In this document: piece by piece, positions 1,065 through 1,123 of the stretch | Numbering within the stretch: the first letter of the stretch is position 1 | How the letters are laid out: each line of letters begins with the position of its first letter | NCBI RefSeq assembly: GCF_003334355.1 | Contig: NZ_QOWP01000079.1 | Origin: Escherichia coli | GTDB taxonomy: Bacteria > Pseudomonadota > Gammaproteobacteria > Enterobacterales > Enterobacteriaceae | Direction: 5' to 3' (one strand) | Length of the DNA stretch: 1,837 nt | Notes under the pieces: generated by a model | What the model was told of the DNA's origin: nothing | The model's input: only the letters and a program-made list of their open reading frames with translations | The model's database searches: none | Made by a program: the position numbers and the translations under genes

Positions 1065-1123
1065 CAGATGACCATGGATGGTTGGCTATAATAGTAATTA
1101 GTTTTTTCAAATAGTTATGAACA

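Follow-up and report, generated by a model that had tools for sequence, protein, structure and literature searches.

Two genes that converge on each other across a short gap raise the question of how transcription ends between them. In the stretch of DNA analyzed here, 1,837 bases of an Escherichia coli contig (NCBI RefSeq assembly GCF_003334355.1, contig NZ_QOWP01000079.1) that we refer to as the window, two stop codons face each other in this way. A preliminary description of the sequence had stated that no recognizable intrinsic terminator lies between them, had suggested that the convergent transcripts may overlap and interfere or that termination may be Rho-dependent, and had proposed terminator prediction as a check. 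We consider it likely that the gap is a recombination seam and not a regulatory element, that it holds no intrinsic terminator, and that the gene beyond it is a Hex-like cassette in the sieA slot. At the level of sequence, we show here the anatomy of the locus, the seam, and the absence of a terminator; Rho-dependent ending and overlap or interference are both compatible with the sequence and with the literature.

By its matches, the window consists of a prophage-type segment of E. coli DNA (78..1762) flanked by two IS1203/IS629-type ends in the same orientation. Its features are as follows.

1..77, minus strand: an IS3-family end of the IS1203/IS629 type (the terminal 77–78 bases), by which the ejection gene is cut.
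24..22, minus strand: the ATG of orfA in the left IS end.
78..1064, plus strand: the 3' part (codons 374–701) of a 701-codon P22 gp16-family DNA ejection (“injection”) gene.
1062..1064, plus strand: its stop codon, TAA.
1065..1083: the conserved part of the gap, about 19 nt, common to loci with other cassettes and holding a 5-bp hairpin.
1084..1123: a cassette-specific, AT-rich 3' tail of 40 nt (GC 0.225) with TATAAT and T6 inside, found only in window-type loci.
1124..1126, minus strand: the stop codon TAA of the cassette gene (reads TTA on the plus strand).
1124..1522, minus strand: the cassette gene, 132 aa, with a GTG start at 1522 and a C-terminal Cys.
1523..1762, minus strand: the conserved upstream region common to all cassette types, from an alignment of 7 loci.
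1529..1533, minus strand: a Shine-Dalgarno sequence, GGAGG, within the conserved upstream region.
1763..1837, minus strand: the other IS1203/IS629-type IS3-family terminus (right inverted repeat and orfB end).

The IS name was checked for the right end only; 24,653 places in 4068 genomes, annotated as “IS3-like element IS1203 family transposase,” match it at 100%. The left end we take to be the left inverted repeat and the start of orfA, from our reading of its sequence (MTKNTRF...) and the layout of IS629. Both ends have thousands of matches on E. coli chromosomes and plasmids, and the segment between them matches about 125 E. coli records or chromosomes at 98–100%. The two IS junctions occurred together in none of 5,426 complete E. 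coli genomes, where the best coverage was 92%, whereas about 124 complete E. coli genomes carry the uninterrupted locus, with annotation; examples of strains with the intact locus are E. coli 510016 (NZ_CP025851 4,640,241-4,642,846) and CP53. In Stx phages, the distance between the same two ends is 1327 bp. The window resembles a short assembly contig with repeats at both bounds.

The preliminary description had spoken of two convergent genes. The two convergent stop codons stand, but the plus-strand “gene” is not whole, as it is cut by the IS at 77/78 and retains codons 374–701. The intact coding sequence lies at 6882..8987 of the reference locus L001 (NZ_CP025851 4,633,360-4,646,000, numbered 1..12600), and position 78 of the window corresponds to position 8001 there. 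Its assignment rests on matches to phrog_770, “DNA transfer protein” (E 2.7e-155), and to phrog_29117 (E 2.3e-175), and relatives are named “P22-gp16 family phage DNA ejection protein” in RefSeq. In the source genome, 328 C-terminal codons are left, and the 5' half and everything upstream have been lost to the IS. Because the gp16 gene is an IS-truncated fragment, plus-strand transcription over the gap is probably minimal in the source genome and may be negligible. The reference locus itself carries full-length gp20-type and gp16-type ejection genes in an island, and no head, tail, or tailspike genes lie nearby in L001, L002, L004, L006, and L008–L010. Upstream of the island are P4-like Icd/ash genes and a TOPRIM-DUF927 primase, and downstream is a PerC-family regulator; a true P22-type immI context was seen only in S88 (L005). 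The retention of intact ejection genes in a satellite-like island is puzzling.

The minus-strand gene encodes a protein with a predicted signal peptide, MNQLKRLVVSGLLFASFGANA, with the predicted cleavage directly before ECW. The start annotated in RefSeq (ATG 1564, 146 aa) was rejected: loci with unrelated genes share the sequence through GGAGG-N6-GTGA and diverge 1–2 codons later, which places the true start at GTG 1522. The RefSeq start is thus probably wrong, and “MMIAILNNAKGRVG” would then be untranslated leader, outside the protein. We likewise do not accept a 237-aa ORF at 1124..1837 as a gene, since its reading frame extends across the IS terminus. Against phrog_2651, the 132-aa protein scores E 1.2e-22, with 116 of the 117 profile positions aligned. 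In tblastn, 16 phage records matched at least 89% of its length with 29–34% identity, among them orf129 of Salmonella phage Emek, Sf6 gp38, and the phage 434 “repressor protection protein” (Hex). It had no match in Pfam, NCBIfam, or PADLOC. This full-length homology makes it a member of the Hex/Sf6 gp38 family, in the alignment of which the N-terminal hydrophobic leader, the ECW motif, and the C-terminal Cys are invariant. The alternative that it is SieA itself (phrog_7745, a multi-pass inner-membrane protein) was rejected, as it matches phrog_2651 only and has a single N-terminal hydrophobic leader; the alignment shows no other hydrophobic segment.

Window protein, 434 Hex, and Sf6 gp38 therefore share the leader, the ECW motif, the C-terminal Cys, and homology over the full length. 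Their genes differ in position: hex and gene 38 (1528..1932 in both records, L026 for phage 434 and L027 for Sf6) lie downstream of the cI repressor gene, whereas the window gene lies beside an ejection gene. In phage 434, hex belongs to the PRM-cI-hex operon, and Hex was named for the heterologous exclusion of P22 by imm434 lysogens; only for 434 Hex have experiments shown exclusion of P22-like phages and protection of the repressor against cleavage mediated by RecA (PMC3564112). The leader, the invariant ECW that immediately follows the predicted cleavage site, and the C-terminal Cys together suggest that members of the family are exported and possibly disulfide-bonded. Export sits oddly with the published cytoplasmic role, the blocking of RecA-mediated repressor cleavage, and is a better fit to the older phenotype, the exclusion of P22.

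Upstream of the cassette gene, a perfect 24-bp palindrome, CAGTTGCAAAA-AG-TTTTGCAACTG, occupies 1739..1762, and every island-type relative keeps it, with 0–1 mismatch, upstream of the slot. By its form, it is a candidate operator to which a dimeric regulator might bind. The insertion point of the right IS is precisely at the edge of this palindrome. The best minus-strand promoter-like site of the intact locus (9977..9950 of L001) lies beyond window position 1762 and is therefore severed here by the right IS; within 1523..1762, the scan called no sigma-70-like site on the minus strand.

These losses bear on one explanation for a gap without a terminator, namely that in the source genome little transcription reaches the gap from either side. 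With the IS ends at 77/78 and about 1762, not only the gp16 5' half and its upstream sequences but also the cassette sequences more than 240 bp upstream are gone, including the best promoter-like site. GC is also low (0.41 in the cassette and 0.31 in the gap), so that H-NS binding is possible, and the silencing of AT-rich acquired DNA by Rho, NusG, and H-NS is established (PMC6797219). We nevertheless regard this explanation as unlikely, since the strains share an unbroken and almost identical cassette ORF, which suggests recent function, and since the conserved 240-bp upstream region and its Shine-Dalgarno sequence are kept. IS3-family ends, moreover, can drive outward transcription. The explanation would in any case be limited to the genome of the window and would leave aside the 124 genomes whose locus is uninterrupted. 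We return to the reading of the gap as a recombination seam, and to its sequence.

The preliminary description of the gap itself held throughout. Between the two stop codons lie 59 AT-rich bases (1065..1123, GC 0.305), TTTTTT is present at 1102..1107, and a GC-rich stem or intrinsic terminator is missing on both strands in a consensus scan, in folding, and in a relaxed hairpin scan. The consensus scan, which served as the terminator prediction, called nothing on either strand of the gap or its vicinity; the whole window had three matches, at 1770, 147, and 496. Shuffled sequence is expected to give about 1.8 matches per 1837 bp (both strands), or about 0.06 per 59 bp, and the absence of a terminator in 59 bp is thus what chance predicts. 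When the gap and its flanks were folded on both strands, the z values (−0.21 to +1.32) were no better than for shuffled sequence. In the relaxed scan, which accepted perfect stems of at least 4 bp, the best plus-strand hairpin was GACCAtggaTGGTT at 1070..1083 (GACCA-tgga-TGGTT; 5 bp, two G-C pairs, −2.9 kcal/mol), the end of which lies 19 nt upstream of the T-run. The pairing that directly abuts the T-run (1084..1103) reached only −0.6 kcal/mol, with one G-C pair. On the minus strand, where the T-run is an A-tract, no hairpin within the gap was better than −2.2 kcal/mol and none had a proper U-tract.

An intrinsic terminator consists of a G+C-rich hairpin, typically of at least 5 bp with at least three G-C pairs, and a U-tract 0–2 nt after it. 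The gap has no such hairpin, and its T6 run lies 19 nt past the only appreciable one. What it shares with the canonical bidirectional intrinsic terminator between convergent E. coli genes is the position between convergent stop codons; unlike that terminator, it has neither a G+C-rich stem nor a stem-adjoining U-tract on either strand. The T6 run is only mildly unusual for the composition of the gap, as it occurred in 4.7% of shuffles of that composition. A perfect −10 hexamer, TATAAT, lies on the plus strand of the gap at 1087..1092, and strains XDL and Z0117 retain it. A −35 element and an extended −10 TG are both missing, and the scan did not call the hexamer as a promoter; in AT-rich DNA, where one such hexamer per 59 bases is unremarkable, it has probably arisen by chance. 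If active, it would give RNA antisense to the Hex-like gene. A search of Rfam at permissive thresholds returned only four chance-level matches, to eukaryotic or viral families and none inside the gap, and a tRNA/tmRNA search of the window found none. A “GGATTTGAAATCC” motif near 1600 was rejected as a tRNA arm.

The comparison of related loci explains the gap better as a seam. A search with 900..1300 showed that similarity ends at about 1081, inside the gap, in about 290 further genomes. In all, 418 E. coli genomes have a gp16 gene of this allele group. We then took a census of 25 loci including the window, composed of annotated loci and 15 viral contigs that were found via the conserved end of the gp16 gene. 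These loci fall into four types, three with convergent cassettes and a fourth junction type.

Type A, the window and six others: gap 59–62 bp; Hex-like gene; no terminator-like site.
Type B, 042, O177, S88, and others: gap 17–18 bp; small membrane protein; hairpin and T-tract on the plus strand.
Type C, ETEC4085 and others: gap 18–19 bp; slot gene of 218 aa in ETEC4085; no terminator-like site.
Type D, two contigs: no convergent ORF within 200 nt; no slot gene; no terminator-like site.

The cassette of the ETEC4085 type has a weak match to the SieA family phrog_7745 (E 2.5e-4). Just past the gp16 stop codon, a core, RRCCA-YGGA-TGGYT, is kept in all convergent types (A–C). The left arm of the hairpin travels with the gp16 allele and the sequence past TGGYT travels with the cassette, which places the breakpoint in the right arm of the hairpin. 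On the other side of the slot, all cassette types share the upstream region to GTGA and diverge 1–2 codons on. At the seam, a single-gene cassette in the sieA slot would thus meet the gp16-family gene, the last of the ejection genes in a P22-like late block, and this slot would be bounded by the shared Shine-Dalgarno sequence and GTG start on one side and by the small shared hairpin after the gp16 stop on the other. Two further observations identify it with the sieA slot. First, the cassette gene lies directly downstream of and convergent with a gp16-family gene (stop codons ending at 1064 and 1124 in the window), a layout that also occurs in P22, Emek, 042, S88, O177, and ETEC4085. Second, alternative, unrelated genes occupy the space between the conserved flanks.

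The hairpin core pairs in 8 of 8 distinct junction variants across the cassette types, and one pair is changed on both sides. This covariation in the 5-bp hairpin was not significant (131 of 500 shuffles were equal), so the core is treated as a shared flank and not as proven RNA structure; we make no claim that the hairpin at 1070..1083 is a selected RNA structure. Its constant ability to pair would suit a collision-type bidirectional termination, in which the hairpin is the pause point for converging polymerases and both transcripts acquire defined 3' ends with neither a canonical terminator nor Rho. According to the part of 10.1101/2022.10.23.513370 that cites Ju et al. 2019, E. coli has a class of bidirectional terminators, located where genes converge, that look like neither the intrinsic nor the Rho-dependent kind and need head-on collisions. 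For the locus studied here, we consider such termination rather improbable. At −2.9 kcal/mol, the hairpin is very weak, its covariation is at the level of chance, and its conservation is explained equally well by its place inside the shared recombination flank. Furthermore, both genes would have to be active simultaneously, and here a truncated late lytic gene faces a prophage-type gene.

The reading of the gap as a seam is also consistent with the way in which the cassette varies. Among strains in which the 3' segment of gp16 is 3.4–7.1% different (the window, L009, L010, and L014), the cassette ORF has 0–1 substitution per 393 nt. The gap tail of type A strains has 1–2 substitutions and 2–3 indel columns; in XDL, Z0117, and L014, these changes are a substitution at 1086 and 2–3 inserted bases beside the T-run, which takes the forms T6, TA+T6, and TA+T7 next to a nearly invariant ORF. 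A near-identical cassette on divergent gp16 backgrounds implies that the cassette moved recently and alone, and that the tail is unconstrained, which counts against a functional terminator inside it. We show here that the Hex-like cassette has, on these comparisons, spread recently and horizontally between divergent backgrounds.

One junction type does carry a terminator-like structure. In 042 and O177 (type B), GGTTAGCCAcggaTGGCTAATT is followed by TTTGTTCTTT at the seam, with an extended stem of −9.2 kcal/mol; S88, of the same type, has a 5-bp stem only, at −4.9 kcal/mol. The 042-type junction sequence is given below.

042-type junction: GGTTAGCCAcggaTGGCTAATTTTTGTTCTTT

The T-tract of type B is made up of the last four codons (KNKN) and the stop codon of the convergent ORF. 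At 3164..3195 of the E. coli 042 locus L004, and likewise in L006 and L005, the same bases are coding on one strand and a U-tract on the other. The type B hairpin shows that a terminator is tolerated at the seam and may be useful there. It also lends something to the idea that the window has a weak, non-canonical intrinsic terminator, a degraded form of the 042-type hairpin and T-tract in which T6 and the AT-rich pairing at 1084..1103 stop part of the plus-strand transcription, since the window has TGGCTA at the same place with TTTTTT 13 nt on, which could derive from the 042-type arrangement by insertion, and since the T-run is mildly unusual for the gap (P ~0.05); yet with a hairpin of −0.6 kcal/mol and one G-C pair beside the T-run, the better hairpin ending 19 nt upstream, a T-run whose length and preceding bases vary between strains while the ORF is invariant, and a 042-type T-tract that amounts to no more than the convergent ORF's KNKN codons, we give this idea very little chance.

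If the gap is a seam with no terminator, the question of how transcription ends has a separate answer for each strand. In a functional P22-like phage, the late operon would be read by a Q/gp23-antiterminated polymerase that crosses the region between gene 16 and the tailspike gene 9, and for such a polymerase a terminator after gene 16 would be neither needed nor effective. It has been suggested that intra-operon terminators could stop non-antiterminated transcription (10.1101/2020.10.05.325894), which would account for the type B hairpin. Against the antitermination argument, most of the intact loci examined lie in the P4-like/PerC island, where neither a Q-type late operon nor a tailspike gene is visible, and the argument may thus not apply to this element. 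The cassette gene would be transcribed from its own side and, like sieA, expressed in the prophage; its transcript would enter the gp16 gene antisense and untranslated, where Rho would most likely end the RNA within a few hundred nt. Rho is known to act on untranslated antisense RNA (PMC5909445, PMC12360218). A scan of the C/G ratio in 78-nt windows against the background of the reference locus L001 gave one C-rich, G-poor stretch for each strand.

786..915, minus-strand RNA: C/G 1.9–2.0 (95th–96th percentile), 210–340 nt past the cassette stop codon.
1247..1376, plus-strand RNA: C/G 1.6–3.0 (89th–100th percentile), 180–310 nt past the ejection stop codon.

Both are candidate Rho loading regions. 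An untranslated C-rich, G-poor stretch past the stop codon is thus present on both strands, as a permissive feature of weak predictive value, and these C-rich windows are weak predictors, for the most part a consequence of the G>C bias that the coding strands opposite them have.

The absence of a terminator agrees with what is known from P22. Gene 16 and sieA of P22 converge over a gap of 22 bp, in comparison with 59 bp in the window; the P22 record has terminators annotated for mnt, sar, ant, and gtrC and none between gene 16 and sieA, and our terminator scan of this gap found none. In Emek, the homologue of the window's gene (orf129) is convergent with a gp16-type gene over a 24-bp gap. Genes 16 and 9 flank sieA, which has a putative promoter of its own (PMC10461980), and the P22 region between these two genes is very variable and inside the late operon (10.1101/2020.10.05.325894). 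The window resembles P22 and Emek in that a short, terminator-less gap separates a gp16-family ejection gene from a small, head-on gene of the kind expressed in prophages. It differs from P22 in four respects. The slot gene is of the Hex/Sf6-gp38 family with a predicted signal peptide, not the inner-membrane SieA; the gap is 59 bp, against 17–24 bp in relatives, because the cassette brought its own 40-nt tail; the gp16 gene is truncated by an IS; and most intact relatives lie in a P4-like/PerC island, not in a complete P22-like prophage. The terminator-less convergent junction is the normal state of the slot in P22-like elements and is already known from P22.

A second parallel is the noncontiguous operon of phi80, in which taiEcA, an antisense immunity gene expressed in the prophage, lies in a Q-controlled late operon and its protein is reduced when Q is expressed (PMC11364771). 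Here, too, a prophage-type gene on the opposite strand adjoins late genes with no terminator between them, and no terminator-like site was called on the plus strand in 7.2 kb around the intact locus. By analogy with phi80, late transcripts would run antisense over the cassette gene. Unlike phi80, however, neither the window nor the intact island has a co-oriented late gene downstream. The rise of sieA RNA on induction (PMC10461980) counts against simple silencing by the late transcript.

What the locus means for P22-like elements lies less in the missing terminator than in the slot. Short convergent gaps with no intrinsic terminator are common, and the missing terminator in itself is ordinary; the gap marks one edge of a cleanly bounded slot that exchanges candidate phage-exclusion genes, and the significance of this exclusion slot is independent of the terminator. 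Tentatively, and with more doubt than confidence, we propose that the slot beside the gp16-family gene is a precise single-gene exchange site at which anti-P22 exclusion genes are traded, that the Hex-like protein blocks the ejection conduit from the periplasm, and that the exclusion gene is subject to antisense late transcription. The traded genes would encode membrane proteins that resemble SieA, a small and unknown membrane protein, and the Hex-like protein, which has a predicted signal peptide; with no terminator in the gap, transcription of the late genes during lytic growth would run antisense over the exclusion gene, in the style of a noncontiguous operon. If it is true that the Hex-like protein is a periplasmic blocker of P22-type ejection, it would be a second type of protein for the sieA slot, and such a periplasmic block would bear on the question of where Hex acts.
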